From Eledone cirrhosa (taxonomy: Eukaryota): 64,000 nucleotides of DNA. The position numbers and the translations under genes are program-made. How positions within the stretch are numbered: position 1 is the stretch's first letter; every line of letters begins with the position of its first letter. The DNA lies in contig OZ024748.1 in the NCBI GenBank assembly GCA_964016885.1, positions 38,998,001 through 39,062,000 on the forward strand. The letters are read 5' to 3'. The notes below the pieces were generated by a model, which worked only from the letters and a program-made list of their open reading frames with translations, ran no database searches and was not told where the DNA came from. Below are positions 24,915 through 63,645 of this stretch, in pieces.

Positions 24915-24985
24915 TAGAAGTGGTATTTAATTTGTTGGAAGTCCAACAAATATAAATGTTTATAACTGATTTATAAAACCATATT

Positions 24986-25050: not shown

Positions 25051-25209
25051 CAAAGTTTGTTTTATAAATAGAGACAGCCATGAAAATCATACCTTATCTG
25101 TTGGAAATTCACTGGATAGTCCATTGGATAGTTCACTATATATATAAAATATATATAATAAAATAAATATGGTTTTATAAATATACTTTCCATTTATTTA
25201 ATATCATTG

Positions 25210-29267: not shown

Positions 29268-29369
29268 GTGAGGGTTTTTTTACAAAATGAAAAAAAACGA
29301 GGTGTCCTACACAAGTGAAAGTATAAGGAAAAAAGATGAAATCGAAAATGCAACTGGTGTCTTACTCAA

Positions 29370-29413
29370 TTCTACTTTTGAAAAGCACAAGAACTGCGAA
29401 ACCAGTAAAGGAA
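29370..29413 (+). ncRNA. Candidate minimal hammerhead with U3-A8 core variant
   Basis: CTT-TTGAAAA-GCA caagaac TGC-GAAA-C ca GTA-AAG, inside a 39-bp inverted repeat (29325-29363/29438-29476). Confidence 0.5.
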
Positions 29414-29471
29414 CCACATAAATATATATTTTTTAAAAAGACTCCAGTTGCATTTTCGATTTCATCTTTTT

Positions 29472-29533
<62 letters not shown>

Positions 29534-34917: not shown

Positions 34918-34958
<41 letters not shown>

Positions 34959-36033
34959 ATCTCTATCTCTCTCTCTCTATCTCTCTCTATATATATCTCT
35001 CTGTCTATCTATCTATTTCTCTATCTCTATCTTTCTGTCTCTCTTCCCCCTCTCTCTCTCTCTATCTCTCTGTCTATCTATCTATCTCCCTATCTCTATA
35101 TTTCTGTCTCTCTCCCCCTCTCTCTCCCTCACTCTATATCTCTCTGTCTATCTATCTATCTCTCTATCTCTATCTTTATCTCTCTCTCCCCCCTCTCTCT
35201 CTCTCTATCTCTCTGTCTATCTACCTCTCTATCTTTCTATCTCTCTCCCCACCCCCCTCTCTCTATCTATCTCTGTCTATCTATCTATCTATCTATCTAT
35301 CTCTATCTTTCTGTCTCTCTCCCCCTCTCTCTATCTCTCTCTATCTCTCTATCTCTCTGTCTATCTATCTATCTCTCTATCTCTATCTTTCTGTCTCTCT
35401 CCATCCCCCTCTCTCTCTCTCTATCTTTCTGTCTATCTATCTATCTCTCTATCTCTATCTTTCTGTCTCTCTCCCCCCTCTCTCTCTCTCTATCTCTATC
35501 TTTCTGTTCCCCTCCCTCTCTCTCTATCTCTCTGTCTATCTATCTATCTCTCTATCTCTATCTTTCTGTCTCTCCCCCCCCTCTCTCTCTCTCTCTCTCT
35601 CTGTCTATCTATCTCTCTATCTCTATCTTTCTGTCTCTCCCCCTCTCTCTCTCTCTCTCTCTATCTCTCTGTCTATCTATCTATCTCTCTATCTCTATCT
35701 TTCTGTCTCTCCCCCTCTCTCTCTCTCTCTCTCTATCTCTCTGTCTATCTATCTATCTCTCTATCTCTATCTTTCTGTCTCCCCCCCCCTCTCTCTCTCT
35801 CTTCATTTCCTCACTTGTAGACTTGCGCGTGTGTGTGTTTATGTTTTGTTTTATGTATGTGTATATGATGGATTTGTGTTGTGTTGTGTTGTGTTGTGTG
35901 TGTGTGTGAGTGTGTGAGTGTGTGTGCGCGCGCGTGTGTGTGTGTGTGTGTGTGTGTAGTTCAGAGTAAAGTAAAAGTGACAGAGAGAAGTAATTAAATA
36001 AGCTTTAATCACGTGACTGTTAGGCGCCAACTT

Positions 36034-36843: not shown

Positions 36844-37257
36844 TGGTGGACGAGATTGAGAGGACTGAGGACAGATGCCTTTCTCTCCCTTCTTTAAGTA
36901 TCACTTTAGAAGGAGAATCAGAGTGGAGAGAGAGGCACTGCACCCCAGTAAATTTACTGAAAGGTGGGTAAATGTGACAAAAATGGCCCGAGTGATTGGG
37001 CCTTCTCTGTTTATAAGCCTGTAGGTTAAAGAAGAGAGTAAAAGGAAGAAAGGATCACTTGCACAGCACGCTCCTGGAGTTGAGGGTTGTTCTATCGACG
37101 GGGTATTAAACAACCCATTTGTGGGGCTTCCCCCCTATTGTGGATTTCGATTGTTGTAATTGTTTGTTTTATATTTTGTACACGACTGTATGTAAAATCC
37201 CCGGCATGTCTTTGTATTGTCCCCTTTTCTTGTGCGCCCTTGTGGCAAATAAAGAAA
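36844..37257 (+). mobile_element. Tx1 3' fragment (copy D)
   Basis: Near-identical to ~38494-38927; (TATC)n both sides. Confidence 0.9.
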
Positions 37258-37301
37258 TCTATCTATCTTTTTGTCTGTATGTCTGTCTGTCTATCTATCT
37301 C

Positions 37302-37336
<35 letters not shown>

Positions 37337-37342
37337 CTCTCT

Positions 37343-38927
37343 CTCGGAAATCGGGGTGATCGGCAACTTACTGAAAGAATACGAAACGCTGACGGGAGCA
37401 AAACTAAACCCAGACAAGTCTGTCGGTTTGCAACTCGGTACGTGGAGAGGCAAACCGATGACATCCGACAGCGTCGTTGGACGTTGGACGGACGGACCGG
37501 TGAAATTGCTCGGGGTCTGTTTCGGTCCAGACCTCCAGGTGGAGAAAAACAGGAACGAGGTCACAGCCAAGGTGTTTGCACTCACTCAGAAGTGGGCAGA
37601 GTGGAAACTGTCCTTGAAAGGTCGAGCGGAGGTGGCGAACACTTTCATAGCGTCCGTCATCTACTACCGCTTGACTGTCGTGCCTTGTCCCCGTGAACAC
37701 CTCGCCAAGATGGAACGCATGCTCTTCCAATTTCTGTGGAAGAAGCAGGCTCCGCTGGTGAGGAGATCCGTCTGCTGTTAGCACCCTTCCAACGGAGGGC
37801 TAGGAATGCCGTGGCTGATGATGCGCAAACATGCGCTGAGGCTGCGGCATCTCCAGGTATTCCTCACCGACCCCCAACCGGTGTGGGCACCGTTTGTGAG
37901 ACAGGCTTTTCCACAGCTCGTCTTGCTAACGGAGCTGCAGTCCTGGGTGAAGAAAAGACCGAAAACGATGGGCACCTGGCACATTGAATGCGCTCAGGCG
38001 CTCTCAGTCCTCTGGCAAGCGGGCGCAGCAATCAGTGGAGACTCCACTTCGACATTCTATAGAGGGATTGTACGTTACAAGGGCGACGACGTGCTCGGAG
38101 AGACTCTGGGCGTCGAAGACGATGAGCTCACCAGTCTGTTTGGTAGGACTTTCCGCCCGGGACCTATGGACAACTTCCAGAGGTCCCTGGCCTGCCAGTG
38201 CTACCGAGGAGCTCTACCGGTTCGTGACAAGATCTACAGGCACGAATGCCCTGGCAAGGATCCTTCCAAGAGGACGTGTCCAAGATGTGCGCAGGATATT
38301 GAAACAGTTCTGCACGCAATTGTACACTGCCCGGGCGTAACCGACCTGTGGAACTATGCAGAACAACTGCTGTCGCGTATGGGACAAATCCAGTTGACTG
38401 CCGAGTCCATAGTAAGGATCAAACCGCCAGCCTCTTTCAAAAACGAAAGAGAGGCGGTTTTCCTCTGTACGGTGGCTATGGTGAAAGAAGTTATATGGTG
38501 GACGAGGTTGAGAGGACTGAGGACAGATGCCTTTCTCTCCGAACAACGATTGATTCCCTTCTTTAAGTATCACTTTAGAAGGAGAATCAGGGTGGAAAGA
38601 GAGGCACTGCACCCCAGTAAATTTACTGAAAGGTGGGTGAATGAAGCGAAAATGGCCCGAGTGACTGGACCTTCTCTGTTTATAAGCCTGTAGGTTGAGG
38701 AAGAGAGCAAAAGGAAGAAAGGAGCACTTGCACAACACACTCCTGGAGTTGAGGGTTGTTCTATCGACGGGGTATTAAACAACCCATTTGTGGCGCCTCC
38801 CCCCTATTGGGGATTTCGATTGTTGAAATTGTTTGTTTTTATATTTTTACACGACTGTATGTAAAATCCCCGGCATGTCTTTGTATTGTCCCCTTTTCTT
38901 GTTGCGCCCTTGTGGCTAATAAAGAAA
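37343..38927 (+). mobile_element. 5'-truncated Tx1 (copy C)
   Basis: ORF2 C-terminal half (KLSLKGRAEVAN, GGLGMP, CPRC..ETVLH), one stop at 37779, AATAAA then (TATC)n. Confidence 0.9.
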
Positions 38928-39151
38928 TCTATCTATCTACCTATCTATCTTGATAGAGTGAGACACGCTTCACATCGGCTCCGCTATTCTATCGGAATTT
39001 ACCCTTACTATAGTAAGTACCAGTGAATTTTTTCAGTGCAACACATTTGGAACACATACCCCTGTTATTTAGGGAAACATTTTTACATTTACCCCCTTTT
39101 TAGGGGGTAAAATAAATAACTATTTTTCTGTAAAACTTCTTTCTTGGCAGC

Positions 39152-41004
39152 ATGGCGGGAAAGATGGCAGACATGTCTGCCATTAGCTCTGCCACGCCCC
39201 CCAAGTCTGAAGAACAAAAAATGGATACAACAAAACTAGACAACGAAACAAACAAGGAAAATGAAAAAACAAATGTTACGGAAAATGAGCAAATGGAAAA
39301 CAAACAAACAGAAAATAAGAATACAAAAAAACAAGGCAACTTTCGCCCAGAAAACAAAAAAATCCATAATATATACACCTATAGACTTAACTGCCGCCAG
39401 AGAAAAACTGGCAGAAGCAAAAAAGCACATAGTCTTGGGGGAGAACGGAATGTTTTCCATTAATCCCCCCCCCCCCCCCCCAGAATTCAAGAAAGCGAGA
39501 ATAGAAAGCACTGTTCTCTTCAGAACAATCCTAAACCAAACGAGAAAGCCAGCACTGCCCAGCCAAATGGAGATAGAGTTGGTCCTAAAAGACTATATGA
39601 AGAATATTCTCTTCATACGAAAGGACCGACTCTATGGTAGCATTTCGGTCTTAACAAAAGACAGGGAAACAGCGCAGAGGCTTTCCCTAAGCCCACTCTC
39701 ATCAACAACATACAGCTTCTATCCCTCCTACATGGGTAGAAGAACACAGAGAGTCAAAATACAAACAATGCTGCCCACAATGAACTTCTGGTGGGCTATT
39801 GCTGGCTTCATAGACATGGGCGAGGACACAGTGCTGTCAATGGGGAAGGCATCTGGAGATGCGTTCCTGGGAATGGGCCTCGATCTACTAGTCCAAATGA
39901 GGCCCGAAAGAATAGCGCAAATCCCGGATCGCATCTGGTTGGATGACCTCACCCCAATATATATAATTGTAGAGGGGAGAAGACCAGCATGCTATTCATG
40001 CACGGAAAGGGGACACGTTAAGGCTAACTGCCCGAATCGTATCCCCCAAAAAGGACTATTGCCCACACCCACCACAAACAGTACACCAACACCACCCACC
40101 TCCAAAAATACACTAATACCACACACAGCAAACCAAATACAGACACCACCAACCACAAGCACAACACAAACATCACCACCACCAGCACCAAACACAAGCA
40201 CGACACAAAAACCACCATCACCAACCACAACACAAACATCACCACCACCATCACCAACCACAAGCACGACACAAACATCACCACCACCACCACAAAATGC
40301 ATTCCAAACAAATAATTTTAAAAAAAAACAGCAACAAATCTACCCCTCCCCTAACTTCTGAAGCAGAAGGAGGAGAAGCCTTCAGACAAGTTAAAAGAAA
40401 AATTTCCCCCAACTTCTGAAGAAGAAGGAGGAGAAGCCTTCAGACAAGTTAAAAGAAAAAAACGAAAGCACACACCCAGCACACCACAAATAACCCACAC
40501 ACAAACACCAACTCCAATCAAAAACACCCCACCCTCGACAAACAAAAATAAATCTGCGCCTCCCCTCTTCGAAACATTGACAGCATCACAAAAAAAGACT
40601 TTGCAATACACATACATAAGTAAAGAAAACAAAAAACTGTTTAAATTAATAAACAATAGCCCTTTGGTGCAGACCGAAGGGCCAAACTTTATCTCAACAG
40701 AGAACTTCACCCATTTAAAAATGATAAAGGTCCCTCTGGACCTTTATCGTTCCTTAAAAGAACAATTTAAACAGGACGTGAGCTCCCCCCCACCTGTTTA
40801 AAACCGTTAAATCGCGTCCTCTTGAAAGATTTCCCCATAACCTCCCCTCTCCCTGACACAACTCCAAATACCCCAACCCCACCACACTCGGATACCCCCA
40901 CACTACCACAAAAATCCCTCCACCCAACACACCCGACGCCATGGAAATTACACAACCCGGAGAGGTAGGTGCTTTTCTTTCTTCACTTTCAACACCAAAA
41001 TAGA
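39152..41004 (+). pseudogene. Tx1 ORF1, frameshifted
   Basis: CYSCTERGHVKANC zinc knuckle in 39261-40361; Pro/Thr-rich tail; pieces in several frames. Confidence 0.8.
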
Positions 41005-41008
41005 TCAA

Positions 41009-44000
41009 TTGAGAGTTGGCTGTTTGAATGCGCGTGGCCTGGGCTCAGCTTGGAAGCAAGCAAAGCTTCTAAGTGACCTCAGGTCACGAAGTATAGATGT
41101 GATGGTTGTTTGCGAGAGTCGGATCAGCAGCGTGCGACAGCTGGCTTCCGCCTTCGATGACTTTGAGATGCACGCATCTCTCTGTCAACCCGGAGGCGGG
41201 GGTGGGGTTGCCGTACTGCTGGATAAACGTCTGGCTCTCGACGTACAGATTGTTCACTCGGACCCAGGGGGTCGATTACTGGTGCTGGACGTCGGAGGCG
41301 GTGAAGGCGGGGCTTTCAGACTGGTCGGTCTTTATGCCCCCTTCGGGGCTGAAAGAGCCGACTTCTTCCAGCGTCTGGAGACTTTTCTAGGAACGTCGCG
41401 TTCCCTGCTTTTTGTGGGGGACTGGAATGGAATCCTAGATGCGCGTGAGGACTATGCAGGGGCATGTCCCGATAGAGGGGGGGTGTAGCAGCCTCAAGGA
41501 GTTACTCGATCGATTCGACCTGGTCGATAGATTTCGACTAGATTTTCCAACTGTGCCAACCTGGACCTGGGCAAACCGTAGTGGTCAATCTAGATCGTAC
41601 CTAGATAGGTTTTTGGTTAGGAGTAAGGATAGGGACGTATTTAGTTGTCCAGAATTGCTCATGGTTGGCTATTCAGATCACAAATTAGTGACCTGCGTGG
41701 TCAACCTTCATAGAACGCATAGACAGGGTCCCGGTTCTGGAAGATGAACTTGTCCTTGCCGACAAAGGAAGCTTACAGGAACCGGATTAGTAGCTTAGTT
41801 AAGATGAGGTTGACGGGAGCGATCGTCAACAGCAGGTGGTGGGTATCTCTAAAGAGAGAGATTAGAGTAAGTTCGATAGGTTACAGTAAGGAACTAGCGG
41901 CGAATAGAAATAGGAGGGAAAGGGAGTTAACAGATAAACTAGAAGAGGCGATTAGGAGCGGAGACGTGGCCAGAGTGTTAGCGACGAGAACGGCATTGAG
42001 CCAGTTCTTTGACGCGAAGCACGAAGGCTGCGTTGTCCGAAGTAAAATACGTGCTTTAGGAAACGAGGGGACCAAAGCTGTTAGCTGGGCCCGCGTGACA
42101 GAAGCCAAGAGTGGGATTAAATCCACCATTCGGTCTTTGCGAGACCAGGATGGACGAGTGATCCTTGAACCTGAGCGGATGTGAGAGGCCTTTCAAAGGC
42201 ACTTTGCTCGACTGTTCGGAGGGGGCGGGGGGCCGGACGCGGATGTGGACTTCGGTCCATACCTCGACGGTCTACCGCGTCTTTCGAGCGGCGAAGCGGA
42301 GTGCTGCGAAAGGCCAATCACAGCCACTGAAATCGGGGAAGCGCTCAGCCAATGCAGCAGACGCAAATCTCCGGGTCTCGATGGTCTACCATACGAACTT
42401 TATTTAGCTATGCCGGTCTTGTTCTCCGAACTCCTCGAGGCTGTCTATTGCAACTGGCAACAGAACGGGAGAATTCCCTGTTTTGTGACCAAGGGTGTAG
42501 TCACGCTAGTGAGAAAGGACGAGAGCAAGGGGGACGACTTAAGTAACTTTAGGCCCATAACTCTGCTGAATGCAGAGTTACAGATTTTGGCCAAGGTGTT
42601 GGCGAAGAGGTTGGCGCTTGTGGTGGGTGGTTTGGTTGGAGACGCGCAGACATGCGCTATCCCGTCCAGGTCCATTCACGACAACCTCCAACTCATGCGA
42701 TACATCGTAGAGAGGGTTGGGAACGAACCCGGCTTTGGTGGGGCCCTGATCAACTTGGATCAATCTAAGGCGTTCGATAGGGTCGACCATGGTTACCTGG
42801 ATGCGGTGCTAGCGGCGGCGGGCTTCGGACCCATTTTCAGGGGCTGGATTTTTGCCATGCACAGTGGCAACGTCTACTCTAGGATTAAAGTAAACGGATA
42901 CCTCTCGGAGCCGTTTCATATCAACCGGTCCATCAGACAGGGGTGCCCACTCTCCTCCCTTCTGTACGTATTGACTCTCGAGCTACTGCTGCGGAAGCTG
43001 GAGTTGCTGCGAGGCATACCCCTGGAACCGGGATTGCACAAAGCGGTCTCGGCCTATGCCGACGACGTAACAGTAATGGTGGCGGACGCCTCGGAAATCG
43101 GGGCGATCGCCACCCTACTGGAGGAATACGAAAGGCTGACGGGGGCTAGGCTGAACCGGGACAAGTCAGTCGGTTTGCAACTCGGAACGTGGAGGGGCAA
43201 ACCGATGCCGTTAGACGGTGTCGTCGGGCGGTGGACGGAGGGCCCGGTGAAGCTGCTCGGGGTCTGGTTCGGACCGGACCTCCAGGTGGAGAAGAATTGG
43301 GGCGAGGTGACGAGCAGGGTGTTTGCACTCACCCAGAAGTGGGCCAAGTGCAAACTATCACTGAAAGGTCGGGCGGAGGTGAAGAACGCTTACATAGCGT
43401 CCGTCATCTACTACCGCCTGACCGTCGTGCCTTGCCCCAAGGAAACGCTCACCATCATGGAGCGCATGCTCTTCCAGTTCCTCTGGAAGAAGCGGCCTCC
43501 CATGGTGAGGAGATCCATCTGCTGCCAGCACCCTTCGAAAGGAGGGCTGGGTATGCCGTGGCTGTTGATGCGTAGGCAAGCATTGAGGCTACGGCATCTA
43601 CAGGTATTCCTCACCGGTCAGCCGGTGTGGGCCCCGTTTGTGAGGCGAGCCTTCCCACAGCTCGTCTCGCTCACCGAGCTGCAATCCTGGGTGAAGCAAA
43701 GACCGAGAAAACTGGGCAACTGGCACACCGAGTGTGCCCAGGCGCTCACGGTTCTCTGGCAAGCGGACCCGACTATCAGTGGAGAATCCACTTCGACATT
43801 CTATAGAGGGCTGGTGGCTAGCAGGGGCGACGACACCCTTGGAGAGTCGCTAGGCATGGAGGAGGACGAACTGGCCAGCCTGTTCGGTAGAACTTTCGGC
43901 CCGGGACCCATGGACAACTTCCAGAGGTCCCTAGCCTGGCAGTGCTACCGGGGAGCTCTGACCGTTCGAGAAAAGCTCTACAGACACGGGCGCCCGGGCA

Positions 44001-44437
44001 GGGATCCTTCGAAAAAGATCTGTCCCAGATGCGTGCGCGACGAGGAAACCGTTGCGCACGCACTGGTACACTGCCTGGGCGTTGCCGATCTGTGGGGCTA
44101 CGTCGAACGACTGCTGTCGCGTGTGGGGCCGATTCGATTGACCGCCGAGTCTGTGGTGAACATCAAGCCGCCTCCTCCCTTCAGAAAGGAAGCAGAAGCG
44201 GTCTTTCTGTGCGTAATAGCCATGATGAAAGAGGTTGTGTGGTGGACGCGCCTGAAAGGTCTGAGGTCGGGTGACTTTCTTTCCGGCCAACACCTGGTTT
44301 ACTTCTTCTGATACCACTTCGGAAGAAGGATCAGGATGGAGAGAGAAGGGCTTGGCCCCAGACAGTTTTATGAAAGGTGGGTGAAAGAAGCGAGAATGGC
44401 TCGTGTAAATGGGCCTTCTCTCTACATTGTTCTGTAG
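41009..44437 (+). pseudogene. Tx1 ORF2 (APE + RT), several frameshifts/stops
   Basis: GCLNARG, VGDWNG, YLDRF, YSDHK; SPGLDGL, FRPITLLN, KAFDRVDH, RQGCPLS, AYADDVT, CPRC..ETVAH. Confidence 0.92.
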
Positions 44438-44714
44438 GTGAAGAAGTGAAGAGGAAAGGGGGAGCGCCTCCTCTCTGGGCTTCCCCCGCGAAAAGGGTTG
44501 CACACTTTTCGGGGGTATGTGCAATCCCCAACACGCCCCCTCCCTTTTGATCACTTTTTATTATTATATTATTCTTATTATGTCTTTTTCTTTACTCGCA
44601 TTTATGTAAACTCCCCCCTGTGTATTTGTCCCTTTCTCTTGTGCCCTAGTGGCAAATAAATATATCTATCTATGTATTTGTCTGTCTGTCTCTATGTATG
44701 TCTATCTAACTATC

Positions 44715-45413
44715 TCCTCCATTCTGTACGACCTGACTCTAGAGCCACTACTGCGGAAGTTGGAGCTGCTGCAGGGCATCCCGTTGGAGCCGGGACTGCG
44801 GAAAACGGTGACGCCTAATGCCGACGACTTAACAGTAATGGTGTCGGAAACCTCGGAAATCGGGGCGATCAGCAACCTACTACCGGAATACGAAAGGCTC
44901 ACAGGAGCAAAACTGAATCCGGACAAGCCTGTCGGTTTAAACGTAGAGAGGCAAACCGATGCCATCCGACAGCGTCGTCGGACGCTGGACGGACGGACCG
45001 GTGAAATTGCTCGGGGTCTGGTTCGGTCCGGACCTCCAGGTGGAGAAAAACTGGAACGAGGTCGCGGCCAAGGAATTTGCGCTCACCCAGAAATGGGCAG
45101 AGTGCAAACTATCCTTGAAAGGTCGAGCGGAGGTGGCAAACACTTTCATAGCGTCCGTCATCTACTACCGCTTAACCGTCGTGCCTTATCCCCGTGAATA
45201 CCTCACCAAGATGGAACGCATGCTCTTCCAGTTCCTGTGGAAGAAGCAGGCTCCACTGGTGAGGAGATCTGTCTGCTGTCAACACCCTTCCAACGGAGGG
45301 CTAGGCATGCCGTGGCTGATGAAGCACAAGCATGCGCTGAGGCTACGGCATCTACAGGTATTCCTGACCAACCCCCAACTGGTGTGGGCACCGTTTGTGA
45401 GACAGGCGTTCCT
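44715..45413 (+). mobile_element. Internal Tx1 RT fragment (copy E), cut off by a retrozyme family 2 piece
   Basis: LEPLLRKLE..NADDLTV..WAPFVRQAF then abrupt switch. Confidence 0.85.
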
Positions 45414-45451
45414 CATACTTTCAGACGTTCAATCATCTGGCAGGAAGGGAT

Positions 45452-45494
45452 ACGATGCTGACGATAGCTAATAAGCTTGAAACTAGTACAGCGT
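45452..45494 (+). ncRNA. Type I hammerhead, retrozyme family 2
   Basis: ACGATG-CTGACGA-tAGCTaataAGCTt-GAAA-C ta GTA-CAGCGT (one stem I mismatch). Confidence 0.75.
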
Positions 45495-45776
45495 TCCTTT
45501 GTCAGTATTGAACAAACGAGCAACGATGGTTGCTAGACACTACGGCTTAATACGGGATGTTTGTTTACAAACACACCGAGCATTATAATAAATGTTCGGT
45601 GAATCCATACGTACATATATATATGTGTGCATGTATGTATATATATACACATACTACTGTACGTCTGTATACATATATACGTATACATATGTACGTATAC
45701 ATATATACGTATACATATGTACGTATGCATACTTATATATATATATATACATATATATATATTTATATATATATAT

Positions 45777-46790: not shown

Positions 46791-46879
46791 TACAGCTGTT
46801 ACTTAAATATAAGTATGTATACGTACATACATATATGTATACAGACGTGTATATATATATAGTAATAATAATAAATTTG

Positions 46880-47847
46880 AGGCACTCAATACCTGCCAAC
46901 CCAACGCCGTCGCCTTCTACTCCAGATACGTTGATGATATCCTGATACTTACTTCTTCCCGGGAGATGGCGAATGAAATTCACCAAATCTTCAACGATAC
47001 TGACCATCACGTCGATTTCACCATCGAACACCCAGGAGAAGACGGGTCACTCGCCCTCCTCGACTTCCGTATCAACATCTCGGAAGAAGGAGACATAAAC
47101 ACCACCTTCTACCGCAAAGCAGCGTGCAAGGACTTATTTGTGCATTATAACTCAGCCCTCCCCAACAACGCTAAGAGAGGCTATGTCCTAAATGAACTGA
47201 CATGGATCACTAACAGATGCAGCGACCCGATGGGTGGTCTCACCCATACCACGCAATTCCGTAATCTACTCAGATCTAATGGTTATCCCAAGCGACTGAT
47301 TAACGGAATTAGAGACCCCAGACCCAATAGACAGACACCCACTAGAAAATTAAATAATAGCAGGTGCTTCTTTAAAATCCCCCACCTGAGTGAATATACC
47401 ACGAACGCCATCCGCAGGGCCATACGGACGGAGGGACTTGACATACATTTGGCCCACACAGGACCTTCGCTGCGAAGATGCCTCTCCAACAAACCCGACG
47501 AGTCAGATGGGACGTGTTCCCTCAGCAACTGCCCGATACGGGGGGCAGATTGCCTACGCACCTATGTCGTATATAAGATTCAATGCGATAAATGTAACAA
47601 GTTTTACATAGGTAGCACCATCCGACCCCTACATGTTCGTATCAAGGAACATATCAACACCAACGCATCTTCCTTCCGTAAACACATCCTTAAATGCGGA
47701 AACCCACAGGGTAGACCCTTGGTCACAGTCCTAGCGACTGAACGCAGCATCGGATCCTTAAGGATAAAGGAAGCACTTGTTATTAAGAACCTCAGACCCC
47801 CACTTAACAACCGGGCTGAGAGAAATGAGCTGACATGGCTAACTTAA
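46880..47847 (+). CDS. Penelope-like RT (C-terminal part) + GIY-YIG endonuclease, 5'-truncated open frame
   Basis: YSRYVDDIL, LALLDFRI, FYRK, SNGYP; VVYKIQCDKCNKFYIGSTIRPLHVRIKEH; EALVI..P.LN. Confidence 0.85.
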
Positions 47848-48450
47848 CCATAGTGACCATTCACAGCCTACGGCCTGCTATCTTCACACACACGCACGTA
47901 TATGCATACCCATACGCATACACACACACATCTATATTTATACACGCACACATGTTTTTACAACCTACCACCTTTCACACCCTTTGATTTCCAGCTTCTA
48001 CAGCCCACTATCTTTCACACACAAACGCACTCACACATATACACACACAGTTACACACACATGTATACCCATACGCTTACACACACACATCTATATTTAT
48101 ACACGCACACATGTTTTACAACCTACCACCTTTCACACCCTTTGATTTCCAGCTTCTACAGCCCACTATCTTTCACACACACACACACTCACACATATAC
48201 ACACTTACACTTATACACACACAGTTACACACACATATATATTTACACACACATATCTTACGGCTTTCACACGCTAGCGCACCCTCTTGATTTAACCCAT
48301 TTGGTCAGTAGCTTTTGCCACAGCCTATCACGCGCACGCGCATTCTTTCCCTCGTTTAAATTTTAAATAATTTTCTCCCCATAACGGCATTCCTGTCTTA
48401 ACGACATCACAACTTTCTCCGCTTGGCCTGTTCCCCCCCTTTTGGAACTT

Positions 48451-48486
48451 TCCCCCGTTGATGGGCGTGAGCCCGAAATATTGGGA
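48451..48486 (+). ncRNA. Degenerate minimal hammerhead in PLE 3' UTR
   Basis: TCCC-CCGTTGA-t-GGGC gtga GCCC-GAAA-TATT-GGGA; core differs from CUGANGA at 2 positions. Confidence 0.45.
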
Positions 48487-48677
48487 TTAAATCTCTACTA
48501 CGGTAACCCTTCTACCTTTGTTTTGTTTTCATCTTTGTCTCTCTCAATTTTCACTTTCACCTGTTTTTCCTATCTATCTTTCACTTCCTACCTCGAGATT
48601 TCCCTCTGCATTGTTGTGGCTTTCTTAAATACGTATTTTACACATTTCACAATGCTTCAAGCAAACTTTAACACCCT

Positions 48678-48747
<70 letters not shown>

Positions 48748-48978
48748 GAATAAATAAAATCATTATTAAAAGATTCATCATTGAAATGGTGAATTTTTTA
48801 ATATAAGGAACTGTTTCTTTGTTTTTATTCATTGTTTTTATTAATTTATCTTGACTCTGTTTTCCTGGGATTTTCATCGAAAAGATGTTTGAATATATCT
48901 TCTCTTTTCATGATATTTGGATTACATTGAGTTCTTCATACGGATTGGACACTACCGTATATTTTGCTAGATTTATCT

Positions 48979-49010
<32 letters not shown>

Positions 49011-49086
49011 CTAAGGAAATATGGTAAGGTACCAGATGGACCATAACGCACTAAAGTACTCAATACTTAGGGTTGTAGAGTGGGTA

Positions 49087-49206
49087 ATAGGAACGAGTAG
49101 GACCCCGACGGCTGAGCTCAAGCCGTTTCAACGGCTAATTCTGGACTCCAGAATTAGCCGTCGAAACGGCTTGAGCTCAGCCGTCGGGGTCCTACTCGTT
49201 CCTATA
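49087..49206. repeat. ~60-bp-arm palindrome at the end of a ~200-bp element (49010-49206)
   Basis: Arms pair almost perfectly around GGACTCC; second copy at 63450-63645. Confidence 0.9.
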
Positions 49207-49403
49207 TATATATACAGTTGAAAATTGCAAACTTGACTGCCACCACACAATATGAACCTCGAGATTGCGAAAGCATGAAAGTACTTGTTCAATTAACACT
49301 TAACATTTAATATTCTATCATACTATTTCATTCTAATACCATTATAAATTTTAAAGGATTGTAAATAAAACGAGTAAATCAGACAAAGTTGGAATTCCTT
49401 TTA

Positions 49404-49532
<129 letters not shown>

Positions 49533-49601
49533 ATATATATGTATATATATATATATATATAAGAGGGTATTGAAGTTTGCTTGAAGCATTGTGGAACAAT
49601 A

Positions 49602-49850
49602 AGTAAATATCTATAGGTCGTTTGGAAGCCTCGACAATGCAGATGGGTAAATCTCCGGGTAACAAGGTCGGGTGGTGGAGAGAGAGATGTAAGTGGGTGT
49701 ACGTTGAGATGCGTGGTGTGTATAACATGTTATACACACCACGCATCTCAACGTACACCCACTTACATCTCTCTCTCCCCCACCGGACCTTGTTACCCGG
49801 AGATTTACCCATCTGCATTGTCGAGGCTTCCAAACGACCTATAGATATTT
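49602..49850. repeat. Spacer-less ~250-bp palindrome, PLE-related 3' end
   Basis: Centre TATAACATGTTATA (~49727); adjacent 49560-49592 is the reverse complement of the PLE terminus at 48648-48680. Confidence 0.9.
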
Positions 49851-49929
49851 ACACATATATTATATATATATATTTCGTTTCTGAATTTGTTTAGCAAGAT
49901 TCTTTATCTGTAATCGTGTGTTGAAACCG

Positions 49930-51093
49930 ATATTGTTATACTTTGGGAGGGTCATGTTGCCAATAAGAAACACACGCACCAGTTGCTTTCACTTCAATTT
50001 ATTATATATTTATAAATTTATAAATTTATAAATTTCTGGTTGGTTGGTTCCACAACCAGATAGTTGTTTATATATAGTCATAGTTCTTTCGTCACACACT
50101 CTGTGACCTCTTCAGTGACTGGGGATTCCTTTCTTTGTTTCTGTGCCTCTCCTTTGTTCTGTCCTACGCCATTTTGTTTCTGTGTGTGTGTTGTGTGCTC
50201 AATCTGGTGAATTAGCTTACAAATTTAGAAGGGCCCTAAATAAACATAAACTCAATATTAAGATAGTAGAAAGACCAGGTACCTCCGTAAAAACACTTAT
50301 TAGCAAGACATACCCTTTTCAAAGACCCTCATGTATAGATAAGAAATGTATAACCTGTAAAATAAGCCCCCATATTAACTGTAAAACTAGAAATGTAGTG
50401 TATAGCATAAGATGTACTGAAGGACAATGTAGAGACAAAAATATAATGTACATAGGTGAGACAGCTCGTAGTGTAGGGAACGGATAAATGAACACTGGCG
50501 AGACCTTCAAGATAATAAAGAATCATCTGTACTCTACCAACATGCTAAGATAGAACACAAGGGTAAATTAGAGAACATAGAAATAAAAATACAATCTACA
50601 CACAGAAAAGACGCAATGTTTAGACAAATTACAGAGGCAATAAACATAAAAGAATTACAACCAAAATTAAATAGAAAATATGAGTGGAACAGCAACATCA
50701 CAACTTACAATTAAGGACAAAATGAAAACACACACACACATAGAACAAACAACCAACCAGTAACATGTAAATAAATAAATAAATAAATGAACATAAACAC
50801 ACACAGACACCCGGATGTGGCGCATGCGCAGACTGAGCACACAACACACACACAGAAACAAAATGGCGTAGGACAGAACAAAGGAGAGGCACAGAAACAA
50901 AGAAAGGAATCCCCAGTCACTGAAGAGGTCACAGAGTGTGTGACGAAAGAACTATGACTATATATAAACAACTATCTGGTTGTGGAACCAACCAACCAAC
51001 CAGAAATTTATAAATTTATAAATATATAATAAATTGAAGTGGAAGCAACTGGTGCGTGTGTTTCTTATTGGCAACGTGACCCTCCCAAAGTAT

Positions 51094-51100
<7 letters not shown>
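49930..51100 (+). mobile_element. Penelope-like fragment (GIY-YIG) with inverted 3'-end copy at its 5' side
   Basis: CKTRNVVYSIRC..MYIGETARS at 50200-50690; 49930-50201 is the reverse complement of 50833-51100. Confidence 0.88.
50915..50959 (+). ncRNA. Minimal type I hammerhead of the PLE (inverted copy at 50076-50120, minus)
   Basis: AGTCA-CTGAAGA-g-GTCAC agagtgt GTGAC-GAAA-G aa CTA-TGACT. Confidence 0.8.
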
Positions 51101-51162
<62 letters not shown>

Positions 51163-51166
<4 letters not shown>

Positions 51167-52243
51167 TTGAAAAAAATGAAAACGAAATTTCATTTCTCAC
51201 TCTTAGTATGGCACTTACTTAAATGTAAGTATGTATGTATACGTACATACATATATGTATACAGACGTACAGTAGCATGCATATATATATACATATATAC
51301 ACATATATATATATACATACATATATACATATATATACATATATGCACACAGGTACACATACATATATGCACGCATCAGTTTAGCCGACGTTTATTATAA
51401 CGCAGCTTTGTTCGTTTGTTTGTCAACAAAGCGAACAGCCTGAATTTATGCCATACGGTGTTAAGGCAACCACGTCACCTTTTGTTCAACACTGACACAG
51501 GAACGATGTACTAGTTTCAAGCTTGTTAGCTATCATCAGCACCGTTTACCCATCTGCCAGATAGTTGAACGTTCGAAAGTATATACTTTCCTTATGAAAA
51601 TTAACGGCTGAGCAGCCTAATTTGCATATTGAGTGAGTTAAATCGGTCAGGCATACCGAAAACGATAAGTTGAAAAAAATGAAAACGAAATTTCATTTCT
51701 CACTCTTAGTATGGCACTTACTTAAATGTAAGTATGTATGTATACGTACATACATATATGTATACAGACGTACAGTAGCATGCATATATATATACATATA
51801 TACACATATATATATATACATACATATATACATATATATACATATATGCACACAGGTACACATACATATATGCAAGGAAAGTATATACTTTCGAACGTTC
51901 AACTATCTGGCAGATGGGTAAACGGTGCTGATGATAGCTAACAAGCTTGAAACTAGTACATCGTTCCTGTGTCAGTGTTGAACAAAAAGGTGACGTGGTT
52001 GCCTTAACACCGTATGGCATAAATTCAGGCTGTTCGCTTTGTTGACAAACAAACGAACAAAGCTGCGTTATAATAAACGTCGGCTAAACTGATGCGTGCA
52101 TATATGTATGTGTACCTGTGTGCATATATGTATATATATGTATATATGTATGTATATATATATATGTGTATATATGTATATATATATGCATGCTACTGTA
52201 CGTCTGTATACATATATGTATGTACGTATACATACATACTTAC
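51163..52243. mobile_element. Retrozyme family 2, 503-bp period, head-to-head inverted
   Basis: 51167 repeats at 51670; inversion near 51873; HHRs at 51502-51546 (-) and 51921-51965 (+); (TA)n on both sides. Confidence 0.85.
51921..51965 (+). ncRNA. Type I hammerhead, family 2 (mirror copy 51502-51546, minus)
   Basis: AACGGTG-CTGATGA-tAGCTaacaAGCTt-GAAA-C ta GTA-CATCGTT. Confidence 0.8.
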
Positions 52244-54114: not shown

Positions 54115-54245
54115 GTGTAGAGGTTATAATTAATTTGTTGAGATACAACAAGCAAAATATTTTTATAACTGATATAAAGCACTCAACAAATGGTTTCATT
54201 TTTTAAGGGTATGTCAATATTTATTTATAAAACTAACCTATATTA

Positions 54246-54311
54246 TATTTTATTTGATGAAAGCGCACCATAGTTTACCTTGGCGGCCCTTGAAATTTGT
54301 ATAATGAAATA
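54246..54311 (+). ncRNA. Family 3 hammerhead, decayed (C3 to U)
   Basis: TATTTTAT-TTGATGA-AAGCGCACCA..TGGCGGCCCTT-GAAA-tttgtaTA-ATGAAATA. Confidence 0.55.
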
Positions 54312-54381
54312 AATATGGTTTTATAAATATAGTTTCCATTTGTTAATATATTGTATATATATATATACATATATATGTATC

Positions 54382-54894: not shown

Positions 54895-55289
54895 CCTCTC
54901 TTTATATATATATATGTTATAAGAACAGATTAAAGTTTAAGCAAAGAATCGCTGCTTTCAACATTAACGGGATCTTCTGAAACTAAAATATTTAATCTGT
55001 GAACGCAGAAGTAAATATTTCGAGAAACGTTGCAACCGAAGGAAAAAAGGAAGACGATATTTTGGTTCGTGAAGACGTTCCCTGGCAATGAACGGAAACA
55101 ATGCGATGATAATACGTCGTTATGTGGACCGGGAAGAACAATTTCATGCAAAGACAAGACCAAGTTTATGGTATAAATGGAGTCGTTAGACTAATATTCT
55201 ATTTAACATAACAGAATGATTTCCAGCCCCGGAGTTTAAGAATGATGTAAATAAAATTGAAAACGAAAATGACAGAGGTTATTAAAATA

Positions 55290-55789: not shown

Positions 55790-55813
55790 TGTATATATAT
55801 ATATATATATATA

Positions 55814-55956
55814 TATTTATTAAAATAACAGATTAAAGTTTAAGCAAAGAATCGCTGCTTTCACCCTTAACGGGATCTTCAGAGTTTCAGAAGATCCCGT
55901 TAAGGGTGAAAGCAGCGATTCTTTGCTTAAACTTTAATCTGTTATTTTAATAAATA
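55814..55956. repeat. Palindrome with ~65-bp arms made from Helitron-like sequence
   Basis: Arms perfect around AGAGTTTCA; arm sequence also at ~31352-31420 and ~54922-54982. Confidence 0.9.
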
Positions 55957-56039
55957 TTTGCTCTACGGTTCTTATATATTTGATATATATTTTCCTTATC
56001 GAGCCCTCTTTGGATTTTAGTTTTCAATGTTATTATTAT

Positions 56040-57121: not shown

Positions 57122-57910
57122 CAATAAGGAAGTTTAAAGGAAGTTAAAAGGGATTTTTTTTTAAAATTCAAATGAGTCCAAGGATAGATAAAAAAATCTC
57201 TTTAAAAAGTTATAAGAAGTTATAAAAAGTTATAAAAAGTTATAAAAATTCATCTTAAAATATAAAAATATATAAAATGTAATATATGGTCAATCTTCCT
57301 TACATAACGTTTTCTATATCCAAACACCTATAATCTCATCCCTCAGATTATATCTATATATGATTCAAGAATTTAATATAATTCTAACCTTAATAACTTC
57401 CTAAATATATAAAATACACTTATTAAATTTTAATTTACTCCTTAAAACCTTTACTTTCTAATATTTCTACTTCATAAATATACTTTGTATTATTACACTT
57501 ATCAATCCTACCTCCAAAAAATATATCATAACCTTTTTATATGACTACTTGGAATTCTTTTAAGAAAAGTTTTTGAAAATTCTAAAAATTTCGTTTGAAA
57601 GACTTTCTGAAAATTTTTGAAAAACTTTTGGTAAAATTTTTGAAAGATACGGAAAAACCATTATCTTCCAATATTTTAAACATTTTTAATATTTATGCAT
57701 ATTTTCATATATATCCAAATATTTATATTATTTATGTATATGTGGAATAATGTATGTGTTATGTTTTAATTATATTTTAATATGAATTTTTATAACTTTT
57801 TATAACTTTTTATAACTTCTTATAACTTTTTAAAGAGATTTTTATCTATCCTTGGAGTCATTTGAGTTTTTTAAAAAATCCCTTTTAACTTCCTTTAAAC
57901 TTCCTTATTG
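57122..57910. repeat. ~130-bp inverted repeat pair (57122-57253 / 57782-57910) in a very AT-rich tract
   Basis: CAATAAGGAAGTTTAAAGGAAG... / ...CTTCCTTTAAACTTCCTTATTG. Confidence 0.85.
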
Positions 57911-58185: not shown

Positions 58186-60159
58186 TCTTTATTTGCCACA
58201 AGGGCGTACAAAAATGGGACATTACAAGACTTGACGGCGGGGGTTTTACATAAAATGTTTAACAATGATAAATAACAATAAACTATATAAAAATAAAACA
58301 ATTGAAAACCCCATTAGGGGGGGGGGGACGCTACTGCGGGGTTGTTTTACACCCCGTGTATAGAACAACCCTCAACACCAGAAACACATTTTGTAGGTGT
58401 TCCTGTCTTCCCTCTGTTTATCTTCCTCAACCTTCAGGTTTATATACAGAGAAGGCGCATTTACTCGGGCCATTTTCGCCACATTCACCGACCTTTCAGC
58501 AAATTTACTGGGGTGTAGCACCTCTCTCTCCACTCTCACCTACCTTCTGAAGTGGTACTTAAAGAAGGGGATGAGTTGTTGTCCGGAGAGAAAGGTGCTT
58601 GCTCTCAGTCCTTTAACCTCGTCCACCATATTACCTCTTTCGCCATAGCCACCAGACAGGGGAAAACCGCTTCTCCTTCATTCTTAAATGAAGGCGGCGG
58701 AGTGATCCTCGCGATAGACTCGGCTGACAACTGGAAGCGTCCTACACGTGACAGTAGCTGTTCGACATAATTCCACAGGCCGGTCACCCCTGGGCACTGA
58801 ACAACTGCGTGCTGAACGGTTTCGATGTCCTGCTCGCATCTTGGACAGGTCCTTTTGGCAGGATCTCTGCCAGGGCGTCCGTGCCTGTAGATTTTGTCTT
58901 GAAATGGTAGAGCTCCTCGGTAGCACTGCCAGGCCAGAGACCTCTGGAAGTTATCCATAGGCCCTGGACGGAAAGTCCTCCCGAACAGACTGGTCAGTTC
59001 GTGCTCCTCGATGCCTAGAGTTTCCCCGAGAACGTCGTCGCACTTATCCTCCACTAATCCTCTATAGAATGCCGAAGTGGAGTGTCCGCTGATTGCCGTT
59101 TCCGCTTGGTAGAGGGATGTGAGCGCCTGAAGGCACTCGAGATGCCAGGCGCCCATTTTCGGTCTTCGCTTGACCCAGGACTGCAGCTCTGTTAGTGAGA
59201 CGAATTGTGGAAGAGCTCGTCTCACAAACGACAGCCACACCGGTTCGCCGGTCAGGAATACCTGGAGATGGCGTAGCCTCAGCGCGTGTTTGCGCATCAT
59301 CAGCCACGGCATGCCCAGCCCTCCGTTAGAAGGGTGTTGACAGCAGATGGATCTCCTCACCAATGGAGTCTGTTTTTTCCAGAGGAACTTGAAGAGTAGG
59401 CGTTCCATTTTGGTGAAGTATTCGCGGGGGCAAGGCACGACTCTCAAGCGGTAGTAGATGACGGACGCTATGTAAGTGTTCGCCACCTCCGCTCGACCTT
59501 TCAAAGAGAATTTGCTCTCAGCCCACTTCTGGGTGAGTGCAAACACCGTGACCTTGTTCCAGTTCTTGTCCACCTGGAGGTCTGGACCTAACCAGACCCC
59601 GAGCAATTTCACCGGTCCTTCCGTCCAGCGTCCAACGACACTGTCGGAAGGCATGGGTTTACTTTTCCAAGTGCCGAGTTGAAAACCGACAGACTTGTTT
59701 GGGTTTAGTCGTGCTCCTGTCAACGTTTCGTATTCCTGTAATAGGTTGCTGATTACCCCGATTTCCGAGGTTTTCAACACCATTACGGTTATGTCATCGG
59801 CATAGGCCGATGCTGCTTTCCGCAGTCCTAGTTCGCTCGGGATGCCCTGCAACAGTCCCAGCTTCCGCAGTAACGGTTCGAGAGTCAGTACGTACAGAAT
59901 GGAGGAGAGAAGGCATCCCTGACGGATGGAACGAATGATTTGGAATGGCTCTGATAGGTAGCCATTCACCTTGACTGCCGAGCAGATGCTGGTGTGCATA
60001 GCAGCGATTCAGCCTCTGAAGACGGGACCGAAGCCGGTCGCCTTGAGAACTGCTTCCAAGTATTGATGGTCGACCCTATCAAATGCCTTAGACTGATCTA
60101 AATTGATCAGAGCCCCACCGAAGCCAGGTTTACACTCTACCCTCTCGCATGAGGTGGAG
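58186..60159 (-). mobile_element. 5'-truncated Tx1 (copy F); extra 3' UTR piece at ~58039-58128
   Basis: DQSKAFDRVDH, RQGCLLS, AYADDIT, CPRC..ETVQH; AATAAA then (TATC)n; TATC-like at the 5' junction. Confidence 0.9.
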
Positions 60160-61524: not shown

Positions 61525-61934
61525 CAGCCACAGAAGGTCAGTTGACAAAAGATCTGGCGGCGAAATCATGGAGTGACTAGAACTAAATTCTCAACTAATT
61601 TTCATTTTTTTTAAATCAGCTAATAATTTAATCAATCAATTACTTTAAAACTATGTATATATATATATAGTAAGGTGTATTATTGGTTGTGTAAAACAGT
61701 CCAATAAATTTATGTTAGCAATATTAAGTTCTCCACGCTTTTGTATATCTCCAATTCCATTCAAGGGAACAGCTAGATGATGTAAAACGGAGTATAAGTA
61801 TCAAAATGAAAATCTGAAGGCAAGGTAAAATCCCAATCATTTTAATCACGACACATGTTTCAATAAGAGGAGGGAATAAACTCTGCGAGTGAACATTGCT
61901 AATTTCTCCCTCATATCAAGAATTTTAAGATAAT

Positions 61935-62023
61935 TCATTTTCACCTGATGAGATCAGTGATAATTGATCAATGCTTTACGATCGATCTATCTCTTATTGA
62001 AAGATGTGTCGTGATTAAAATGA
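61935..62023 (+). ncRNA. Candidate type I hammerhead with enlarged domain II
   Basis: TCATTTTCAC-CTGATGA-(47 nt)-GAAA-gatgt GTC-GTGAttAAAATGA; the inverted copy 61799-61869 retains GAAAC atgt GTC. Confidence 0.55.
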
Positions 62024-62487
62024 TTGGAATTTTACCTTGCCTTCAGATTTTCATTTTGATATATATACACATATATATATATATATATATATATACGCGT
62101 GTGTTCATTAAGTTTCTTGAGAGCAGGTGGTGTGCTCTAACCAAGGGCTCCTAGTTGCATTAACCCAACATTCTACTTAAGATGATATGTGTGTGGAGGG
62201 TTAACTCTAGTAGTAACAATAGGCAACTATTTCATGGTTGACTTCTACGAGATGTAGAGAAACGATTGGTGAGGTCAACAGAAGGTCAACAAATAACATA
62301 CGGTGGCTGATCTCTATAGTATCATGTAGAGAAGCAAGGTGTGTGAAGGGTCAATAGTAGATAAAGGTCAACAAATAACATACGACGGTTGACCTCTACA
62401 GTATCAGGTTTAAATAATTTATTTGTTCTGACATACAATCACCTTACCTTCCTTCTTTTATTATGATCGTCTCACATAGCATAGGGG

Positions 62488-62679: not shown

Positions 62680-63386
62680 CCTAAATACATATATGTATAC
62701 ACAGACGTACAGTAGTATGTATATATATACATACATGCACATATATATATATATGCACGTATCGGTTTACCGAACATTTATTATAATGCTTGGTTTGTTT
62801 GTTTGTCATGTATATATATATATACATACTACTGTACGTCTGTATACATATATGTATGTACGTATACATACATACATACTTACATTTAAGTAATGCCGTA
62901 CTAAGAGTGAGAAATGAAATTTCGTTTCATTCTATTCCATTTATGGTTTTCGGTGTGCCCGGCCGACTGAACTCACTCGATATGCAAATTAGGCTGCTCA
63001 GCCGTTAATATGCATAAGGAAAGTATATACTTTCAGACGTTCAACCATCTGGCAGGAAGGTATACGATGCTGACGATAGCTAATAAGCTTGAAACTAGTA
63101 CATCGTTCCTGTGTCAGTGGTGAACAAAAAGGTGACGTGATTGCCTAAACACTGTACGGCGTAATTCGGGCTGTTTGTTTGTTTACAAACAAACAAACCG
63201 AGCATTATAATAAATGTTCGGTAAACCGATACGTGCATATATATATATGTGTGCATGTATGTATATATATATATACATACTACTGTACGTCCGTATACAT
63301 ATATGTATGTACGTATACATACATGCATACTTACATTTAAGTAAGTGCCGTACTAAGAGTGAAACTGAAATTTCGTTTCATTCTAT

Positions 63387-63390
<4 letters not shown>
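62680..63390 (+). mobile_element. Retrozyme family 2 copy with inverted 5' segment
   Basis: 62680-62806 is the reverse complement of ~63175-63310; ~1.2 units follow; ends in (TA)n. Confidence 0.82.
63064..63106 (+). ncRNA. Type I hammerhead, family 2
   Basis: ACGATG-CTGACGA-tAGCTaataAGCTt-GAAA-C ta GTA-CATCGT; stem I extends via CTGGCAGGAA/TTCCTGTGTCAG. Confidence 0.8.
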
Positions 63391-63449: not shown

Positions 63450-63451
<2 letters not shown>

Positions 63452-63645
63452 TAGGAACGAGTAGGACCCCGACGGCTGAGCTCAAGCTGTTTCGACGGCT
63501 AATTCTGGACCAGAATTTGCCGTCAAAACGGCTTGAGCTCAGCCGTCGGGGTCCTACTCGTTCCTATTACCCACTCTACTACCCTAAGTATTGAGTACTT
63601 TGGTGCGTTATGGTCCATCTGGTTCCTTACCACATTTCCTTCGTT
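63450..63645. repeat. Second copy of the 49010-49206 fold-back element, opposite orientation
   Basis: Same arms (TAGGAACGAGTAGGACCCCGACGGCTGAGCTC) and same turn point. Confidence 0.9.

Follow-up and report, generated by a model that had tools for sequence, protein, structure and literature searches.

Head-to-head palindromes at (TA)n tracts in a 64-kb stretch of Eledone cirrhosa DNA: probable insertion units of Penelope-like retroelements

Penelope-like elements (PLEs) leave insertions of a characteristic shape. In the available portion of Craig 2021 (PMC8557442) they are described as 5'-truncated, often with an adjoining inverted copy that is itself 5'-truncated, with a tail of 30-40 bp at one end only and with hammerhead motifs in their pseudo-long terminal repeats (pLTRs); the same portion gives (TA)n as the favoured target of Naiads and, for Neptune, suggests that the CX2-5CxxC linker might underlie a bias of this kind. 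Arkhipova 2013 (PMC3846280, available in part) describes the same layout in rotifers and proposes self-priming on an antisense template. Frangieh 2024 (PMC11167929) reported that purified anole PLE protein cleaves and extends both target strands, favouring AT-rich DNA, that reverse transcription begins at two neighbouring positions inside the RNA (the tail seen in genomes being the stretch between them, and both sites being used alike on both strands in vitro), and that hammerhead cleavage is dispensable. For the hammerhead-bearing tandem repeats known as retrozymes, the part of the review by de la Pena 2020 that was available (PMC7761336) proposes multimeric reverse transcription of circles, and the accessible text of a preprint (Li 2026, 10.64898/2026.07.22.740005) proposes that retrozymes are non-autonomous PLE derivatives that arose from PLE pLTRs. 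Here we compare with these systems a set of palindromic repeats in a 64,000-nucleotide stretch of the octopod Eledone cirrhosa (assembly GCA_964016885.1, contig OZ024748.1, positions 38,998,001 to 39,062,000; hereafter 'the window'), which belongs to a microsatellite-rich genome of 3.0 Gb.

The window intervals were examined by minus-strand self-BLAST, repeat finding and direct sequence reading. The initial annotation had listed eleven intervals in which an inverted copy of the 3' part of a repeat stands at its 5' side, with both 3' ends outward and usually running into (TA)n, and had assigned them to at least six sequence families. An inverted repeat is present in 10 of these 11 intervals; the remaining one, at 54118-54350, has only microsatellite flanks, and at 49010-49206 the inverted arms correspond to inner rather than outer 3' parts. 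At least eight sequence families could be counted (F1 to F8), plus a further family at 55813. The (TA)n association was borne out in 13 of 15 non-microsatellite local palindromes, which abut such a tract at one or both outer ends (TA-like 16-mers make up 4.3% of the window as background), and is absent from the flanks of two inverted repeats, at 28515-28968 and 57122-57910. Hammerhead motifs in F1, F6 and F7 lie on the minus strand in left arms and on the plus strand in right arms, and the open reading frames (ORFs) of F6 and of the F5 parent element point toward the outer ends. The two indications agree, and the 3' ends therefore face outward, as had been stated.

We believe that these palindromes are probably the insertion units of PLEs, together with those of short RNAs likely to make use of the PLE enzyme. 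No new kind of element is involved; the palindromes have the known PLE insertion shape, which is very common in this genome. Of the single mechanism that had been suggested for all of them (fold-back second-strand synthesis or twin priming at TA repeats), the shared part survives as the PLE integration machinery, which twin priming fits and fold-back fits in a minority of cases, and the mechanism is not novel.

The argument is carried by F1, a family with 467-bp units that forms a 10.6-kb array near the left end of the window:

1232-1295: (TA)32 target tract bounding the array on its left, identified by Tandem Repeats Finder and from the sequence
1293-8630, minus strand: F1 left arm, 15.7 units of 467 bp, with a hammerhead motif on the minus strand in every unit
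8627-11932, plus strand: F1 right arm, 7.1 identical units, with the hammerhead motif on the plus strand
11931-12089: (AT)79 target tract bounding the array on its right

The right arm has its outer end at a position that we call site 1 (...CTTAAT), and the left arm ends at site 2, so that it includes a 75-nt tail (1293-1367). The two arms overlap by 4 nt at the inner junction, which joins unit positions 210|431. Only three singleton differences occur over the 22.8 units, none of them common to neighbouring units, and genome copies are 99-100% identical to the window unit. We mapped 27 F1 loci (the window locus and 26 elsewhere in the genome); as in all our genome searches, only the best 40 candidates were scored, and the resulting counts are samples biased to long, well-preserved copies. 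Twin arms are present at 22 of the 27 loci and a single arm at five, and all 22 twins have the same orientation, minus then plus (head-to-head). The shortest arm measures 33 nt and the longest 15.7 units, and within a pair the arms are unequal, either one being the longer. Inner junctions are dispersed over the unit, with the two arm positions mostly far apart within pairs; near-symmetric junctions are seen in L129 (384|382), L210 (85|72) and L211 (inside a 26-nt hairpin of the unit).

The outer ends, by comparison, are fixed. Among the 17 complete pairs (those with both outer ends within the retrieved DNA), 15 have one end at site 1 and the other at site 2 (...TTTTTAT), 75 nt further on; of the other two pairs, L213 ends at site 1 on both sides and L203 has one odd end. 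Independent choice of a site at each end would give at most half mixed pairs, and the binomial probability of 15 or more among 17 is 0.0012. The longer arm of the 15 mixed pairs is the one ending at site 2 in nine cases and at site 1 in five, with one tie. Microhomology at the inner junctions, a quantity to which the initial annotation had pointed, averages 2.0 nt over 19 F1 junctions compared with 0.76 nt in simulation (P=3e-5); L129, L201 and L211 were excluded from this set because their junctions are degenerate, duplicated or located within the unit hairpin. The junctions contain no filler, with the exception of 1 nt in L209, and the F1 flanks are in line with a preference for TA/AT-rich targets. 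In L201 (C2:150474700-150478400) the junction is repeated at positions 1204-1281 by a 48-nt plus-strand piece and a 24-nt minus-strand piece, which suggests that the template was switched more than once within one insertion.

The 26-nt hairpin is a near-perfect palindrome (13 bp paired, z -2.8) at positions 35-60 of every F1 unit (for example, at 11500-11525 in the window), and sits within the 75-nt tail, between both start sites. We considered such a tail hairpin as a shared element for binding reverse transcriptase (RT) and rejected the idea; it is seen in F1, weakly in F7 (z -1.7), and not in F4, F5 or F6.

Layout, strand orientation, fixed outer ends, variable inner ends and TA flanks are thus directly visible in these insertions. 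Given two fixed outer sites per family and variable inner junctions, both arms therefore started from the outside. In the route that we propose, a GIY-YIG endonuclease would nick both strands of a (TA)n tract in vivo, and each freed 3' end would prime reverse transcription of the element RNA at one of two fixed internal sites, 43-77 nt apart. The two cDNAs would then extend inward and be joined through 0-6 nt of microhomology, yielding two 5'-truncated, head-to-head copies with their 3' ends outward and a tail (the stretch between the start sites) at one outer end only. Families without coding capacity would be mobilised in trans, and for F1 and F7 the template would likely be multimeric or circular, so that one event would produce each arm as a ready-made tandem array.

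The match to the published PLE insertion shape and to two-strand extension in vitro leads us to favour this twin priming over fold-back, in which one cDNA (or a template of antisense RNA) would snap back on itself and be copied outward to give the inverted arm. Self-priming from palindromes at inverted junctions has been argued for PLEs (PMC3846280, in the part available), and a fold-back origin would predict symmetric junctions and identical outer ends. This is found only in the F5 copy at 49560-49852, where a zero-spacer junction falls at the self-complementary ACATGT, and in L129, L210 and L211. Most F1 junctions are asymmetric (for example 231|47, 400|82, 258|133 and 108|286), and the F6 family described below has large spacers, of 622 nt in the window and ~3 kb in L014. 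A copied arm, moreover, could neither exceed its template nor stop at a different fixed site, whereas either arm may be the longer in F1 pairs and 15 of 17 pairs end at two different sites. We therefore regard fold-back as an unlikely explanation overall.

The mixed ends of F1 raise the further possibility, which we advance only tentatively, that each integration uses both RT start sites once, one per DNA end. If so, a dimeric PLE particle might span the cut (TA)n tract with a single RNA and copy two neighbouring sites at once; on a circular hammerhead RNA both polymerases would circle the template, and opposed arrays such as the 15.7 and 7.1 units of the window could arise in one event. Hammerhead 'satellite' arrays would then be born at full size upon insertion, rather than growing by unequal crossing-over.

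An artefactual origin, in which the palindromes would be produced by chimeric fold-back reads during library preparation or assembly, was also considered. What speaks for it is the 10.6-kb F1 array, which is 99.97% uniform and whose centre has no read placement. Identity between palindrome arms in the window is 83-100%, with most pairs diverged by 2-17%, and this divergence excludes a chimeric-read artefact for most palindromes. In addition, the same layout is seen at 22 F1 loci, whose junctions differ and whose ends lie at fixed biological sites, a 90-nt short-read contig (run X1) crosses the centre of the F4 palindrome (49087-49176), and the boundary between tail and arm of F6 is present in contigs from other-organism runs. 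Most window palindromes are old and genuine and are not read chimeras, and we consider an artefact to be extremely improbable as a general explanation.

The window contains the following PLE pieces:

49876-50206, minus strand: F6 inverted arm, a 277-nt 3' piece plus a 55-nt tail (49876-49929)
50207-51101, plus strand: F6 5'-truncated copy, with a decayed GIY-YIG coding region and pLTR
49560-49852: F5 twin 3' stump, consisting of a 250-nt palindrome (98.4%) extended by 43 nt
46813-48682, plus strand: third PLE, 5'-truncated, retaining the YVDD motif of RT and a GIY-YIG domain

The F6 copy terminates at its site 1 (...ACAATA) within (AT)33, and its arms (49930-50206 and 50829-51101) are 96.4% identical. 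A longer F6 copy (L014:4090-6372) encodes a YVDD RT, a CX4CxxC linker and a GIY-YIG domain in a single ORF, which reads ...YSRYVDDINIV... and then ...VVYSIRC...YIGETARNV..., with the linker (CIDKKCITC) immediately upstream of the GIY-YIG core. Another copy, L015, contains a pLTR: upstream of its ORFs the 3' end is repeated in direct orientation over 283 nt. The F6 tail is read-through into the next unit, and in L015 it continues to the element body. Inverted-arm lengths vary widely among F6 copies (277 nt in the window, 2400 in L013, 582 in L014, 637 in L009 and 63 in L010, three others having 91, 39 and 29 nt), and all four simple F6 pairs have only one tailed end. A tally of loci found with 3'-end probes yielded no F6 twin and one direct pair in the sample.

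The F5 twin in the window has its 43-nt tail on the left copy and none on the right. Its parent element (L075) combines a YVDD motif with a GIY-YIG domain that scores 24.4 bits (Pfam cut-off 22.6), and 10 of 12 distinct F5 pairs have one tailed end, in a sample biased by the presence of the tail in the query. The third PLE carries an F5-like tail at its 3' end, followed by (TA)32, and its GIY-YIG domain (46813-47847) scores 22.7 bits against the same cut-off of 22.6. RT and GIY-YIG coding capacity is therefore directly seen in two of the families, and we conclude that F6 is a Penelope-like element and F5 the 3' end of a second PLE. The stretch between F4 and F5 (49206-49400) has very deep short-read contig cover and is another repeat.

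The initial annotation had called for a test of association between the inversions and hammerhead ribozymes. Using our own relaxed motif scan, adopted because a strict scan missed F6 and F7, we found 29 matches in the window and none in any of five shuffles. The motifs were found in only three of the eight families: F1 (467-bp units), F7 (503-bp units) and F6. No hammerhead was found in F2, F3, F4 or F5, and the strict scan gave only a doubtful match in F8, so the proposed link is partial and holds for three of the eight families. The candidate F6 hammerheads, at 50076-50120 (minus) and 50915-50959 (plus), have a bulged helix II and a helix III of 1 bp, and the F7 motif has a U-U closing pair in helix II. 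A covariance check with Rfam over the whole window returned no hit of any kind at the gathering score; the HH9 model scored 37.7-41.1 bits on F1 units only, compared with a gathering score of 52, and other matches at E up to 10 were mostly microRNA look-alikes on TA/CA repeats and palindromes, which we treated as noise. Judged by their sequence, F1 and F7 are putative hammerhead tandem repeats of the 'non-LTR retrozyme' type.

The second of these families, F7, is represented in the window by two twins and a monomer:

51163-51877, minus strand: left arm of the first F7 twin, 1.4 units, outer end at site 2 with the tail present, hammerhead motif at 51502-51546 (minus)
51878-52243, plus strand: partner arm of the first twin, ~0.7 unit, hammerhead motif at 51921-51965 (plus)
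62680-62812, minus strand: short arm of the second F7 twin, outer end ~60 nt before the unit end
62813-63390, plus strand: long arm of the second twin, outer end coinciding with the unit end, within (AT)n, hammerhead motif at 63064-63106 (plus)
45415-45650, plus strand: 5'-truncated F7-family monomer, 75% identical to the unit, running into a TA-rich tract

The arms of the first twin (51163-52243) are ~495 nt long and 93.8% identical, and its partner arm stops ~60 nt before the unit end, at site 1. In the second twin (62680-63390) arm identity is 83% and the inner junction is unlike that of the 51163 copy. All seven distinct internal strand switches in F7 arrays run from minus to plus. A region of C18 (6236182-6254507; L094, L102, L105 and L106) contains one F7 twin, with a junction of ~239|459, that recurs several times in ~18 kb; there the head-to-head unit seems to have been amplified whole as a higher-order tandem repeat. 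The monomer at 45415-45650 contains a degenerate hammerhead-like stretch on reading, with no hit there in the motif scan. We considered it as the pLTR of the neighbouring PLE and rejected this assignment; it is a separate insertion.

All families display this asymmetry of their two outer ends; the one-sided extension measures 75 nt in F1, 55 in F6, ~60 in F7, 43 in F5 and 77 in F4. Comparison of the 3' ends revealed no convincing sequence common to the families beyond AT-richness and a TAT|CG unit boundary in F1, F6 and F7.

The other families that were listed initially consist of short elements:

24915-25205, plus strand: F2, with a 36-nt internal inverted repeat (24969-25004 and 25147-25182, 100%) and TA on both sides
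54118-54350, plus strand: second F2 copy, in which no inverted repeat was found besides the microsatellite flanks
29322-29478, plus strand: F3 head-to-head stump, arms of 34-42 nt (95-97%), 74-nt spacer, TA on the right
49010-49206, plus strand: F4, 197 bp, a 119-nt hairpin without spacer (49087-49205, 97.5%) with a 77-nt extension on one side only, TA on both sides
63450-63645, minus strand: second F4 copy, a 115-nt palindrome (93.9%), inverted relative to 49010-49206 (94%)
61792-62068, plus strand: F8, outer arms of 78 nt (95%), 121-nt spacer, TA on the right

In the 3'-probe tally, two-terminus loci of F2, F3, F5 and F8 comprised 39 head-to-head arrangements, no tail-to-tail arrangement and one direct arrangement (in F2). 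Copies with a single terminus account for 10 of 19 loci in F3, 12 of 19 in F5 and 5 of 18 in F8. F4 copies are flanked by TA on at least one side at 30 of 30 loci and on both sides at 26 of 30, compared with a background of 4-5%.

Inverted ends adjoining TA are a property of Tc1/mariner-type miniature inverted-repeat transposable elements (MITEs), and the short elements might for this reason be regarded as cut-and-paste MITEs with terminal inverted repeats (TIRs) and TA target-site duplications. An inverted repeat at 28515-28968, which has TIR-like ends (AGAAGTCGACC...GGTCGACTTCT) and arms of ~190 nt at 74% identity, is possibly a DNA-transposon remnant and served as our non-PLE contrast; this best TIR-like case has no TA flank. 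In F3, F5 and F8 the paired TIRs that a MITE should have in every copy are often not both present: many copies have one terminus and continue inward to longer elements, and arm length differs among copies. The ends of F4 are not mutual inverted repeats, and in F5 and F6 the parent element codes for RT together with GIY-YIG. A MITE origin thus appears very unlikely. The families other than the PLEs and the tandem repeats are short end-stumps or units resembling short interspersed elements (SINEs).

A different question is whether F4, F2 and the older F8 copies each acquired their inversion at insertion, or instead descend from a palindromic master, inverted once, that has since been inherited and re-inserted whole. 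All 40 scored F4 copies have the same full-length structure with the 119-nt hairpin, 27 of 31 aligned copies have the same centre (GGAC|TCC), and spacing in F2 and in older F8 pairs is nearly constant at ~250-270 nt, all of which would be expected under inheritance. Identical twins are also expected if both cDNAs reach the 5' end of a short RNA, and full-length matches ranked first in the searches, hiding truncated F4 forms. In short-read contigs from the same species many joints link varied positions (49050-49107) to exactly 49147, which suggests F4 copies with differently truncated partner arms, a weak indication from short contigs in a highly repeated region (contigs over 48900-49990 correspond to short, high-copy repeats, and none spans the whole stretch). 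The arms of F4 differ recurrently at CpG sites only, and inheritance and re-creation are not separable from these differences. The F4 palindrome may therefore be inherited or may be re-made identically at each site; a palindromic master for F4, F2 and older F8 is in our view a possible but less probable account. In contigs from runs X4 and X7, which carry other-organism labels, both the tail of F4 and the junction of tail and arm in F6 occur, differing at 1-7 positions per 70-90 nt, and these families therefore extend beyond Eledone cirrhosa.

Several of our results weigh against the interpretation of the palindromes as products of PLE twin priming. We infer two-strand priming in vivo, rather than taking it from experiment or from reads. 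The equal use of the start sites on both strands in vitro (PMC11167929) does not by itself account for the one-of-each pattern of F1 ends (15/17), and the symmetric or hairpin junctions of the 49560 copy, L129, L210 and L211 fit fold-back as well. At E up to 10, Rfam placed no hammerhead in F6 or anywhere in 48950-51110, and the Pfam scores of F6 are under the curated cut-offs (17.5-19.6 bits for RVT_1 and 18.6 bits for GIY_YIG_2). Among the scored genome hits there was no PLE with a pLTR closely matching F1 or F7, and the reliance of these two families on a particular PLE is unproven. Finally, given the uniformity of F4 (40/40 and 27/31), de novo formation is not demonstrated for that family.

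Two palindromes with the same signature, absent from the initial annotation, were found in the window:

22583-23643: palindrome of ~1 kb, arms of ~510 nt (89%), 49-nt spacer, TA runs at both ends
55813-55957: palindrome of 145 nt belonging to the further family, TA on the left

The latter family also has single copies at 31347-31421 and 54910-54984. Four GC-richer blocks, at 14325-17283 (minus), 37110-45471 (plus), 58605-60008 (minus) and 19953-21263 (plus), match one another at 72-83% and carry ORFs of the type found in long interspersed elements (LINEs; RVT_1 up to 101 bits, zf-RVT). These are copies of non-LTR (non-long terminal repeat) retrotransposons, unrelated to the palindromes and without comparable TA-run flanks. 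Degenerate (TTG)n, (GTG)n, (TGG)n and (CTCT)n tracts of 0.8-1.2 kb, at 8-1112, 13027-13860, 33554-34755 and 34921-35802, produce spurious long ORFs.

The layout itself, a tail on one side only and the bias to (TA)n or AT-rich targets have all been published already; the twin layout of hammerhead tandem arrays and the rule of one start site per end are modest additions that, within the literature searched, may be new. The value of F1 is that it is young: its dozens of nearly unmutated twins expose the outcome of a poorly understood retrotransposition pathway, displaying fixed outer starts (one of each site), microhomology at the inner junctions and arrays that are uniform from end to end. They provide structural evidence, obtained independently, for the recent claim that PLE machinery carries animal retrozymes, agree in vivo with the extension of both target strands in vitro, and raise a testable point, namely the division of two start sites between two DNA ends. 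For annotation they carry a warning that, in genomes of this sort, PLE stumps account for many apparent 'hairpin' or 'MITE-like' repeats.

In twin priming by human L1, too, both target strands prime cDNA, and microhomology joins the two products. What is inverted there is another part of the RNA, lying upstream, and hence no palindrome results. The insertions described here differ in that both primers start near the 3' end, so that the arms duplicate each other.

The closest resemblance is to endonuclease-containing (EN+) PLEs of the Neptune/Nematis type, with which the window elements share RT and GIY-YIG in one ORF, a CX4CxxC linker and a pLTR, as well as the inverted 5'-truncated copy at the 5' side, the one-ended tail and the (TA)n/AT-rich target; for F6 the likeness to Neptune and Nematis is one of linker motif. 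Our own scan adds a candidate hammerhead motif in the pLTR, and the two fixed end sites match the two RT start sites. Tails in the window families are longer than those of published PLEs (43-77 nt as opposed to 30-40 bp), and the available portions of PMC8557442, PMC3846280 and PMC11167929 do not state a rule of one start site per end.

F1 and F7 also resemble metazoan non-LTR retrozymes as presented in the available parts of PMC7229834 and PMC7761336, in that their 467- and 503-bp units carry a putative minimal type I hammerhead and form dispersed tandem arrays. The words 'inverted' and 'orientation' are absent from Cervera & de la Pena 2020 (PMC7229834), and the accessible text of PMC7761336 and of 10.64898/2026.07.22.740005 makes no mention of a twin layout of hammerhead arrays (in the preprint, 'inverted' occurs in a reference title only). 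The units of F1 and F7 are longer than the ~150-300 bp quoted for retrozymes in the portions available. Unlike retrozymes as they have been described, each F1 or F7 insertion, known here from DNA alone, takes the form of a twin of opposed arrays with the tail asymmetry of a PLE and TA flanks.

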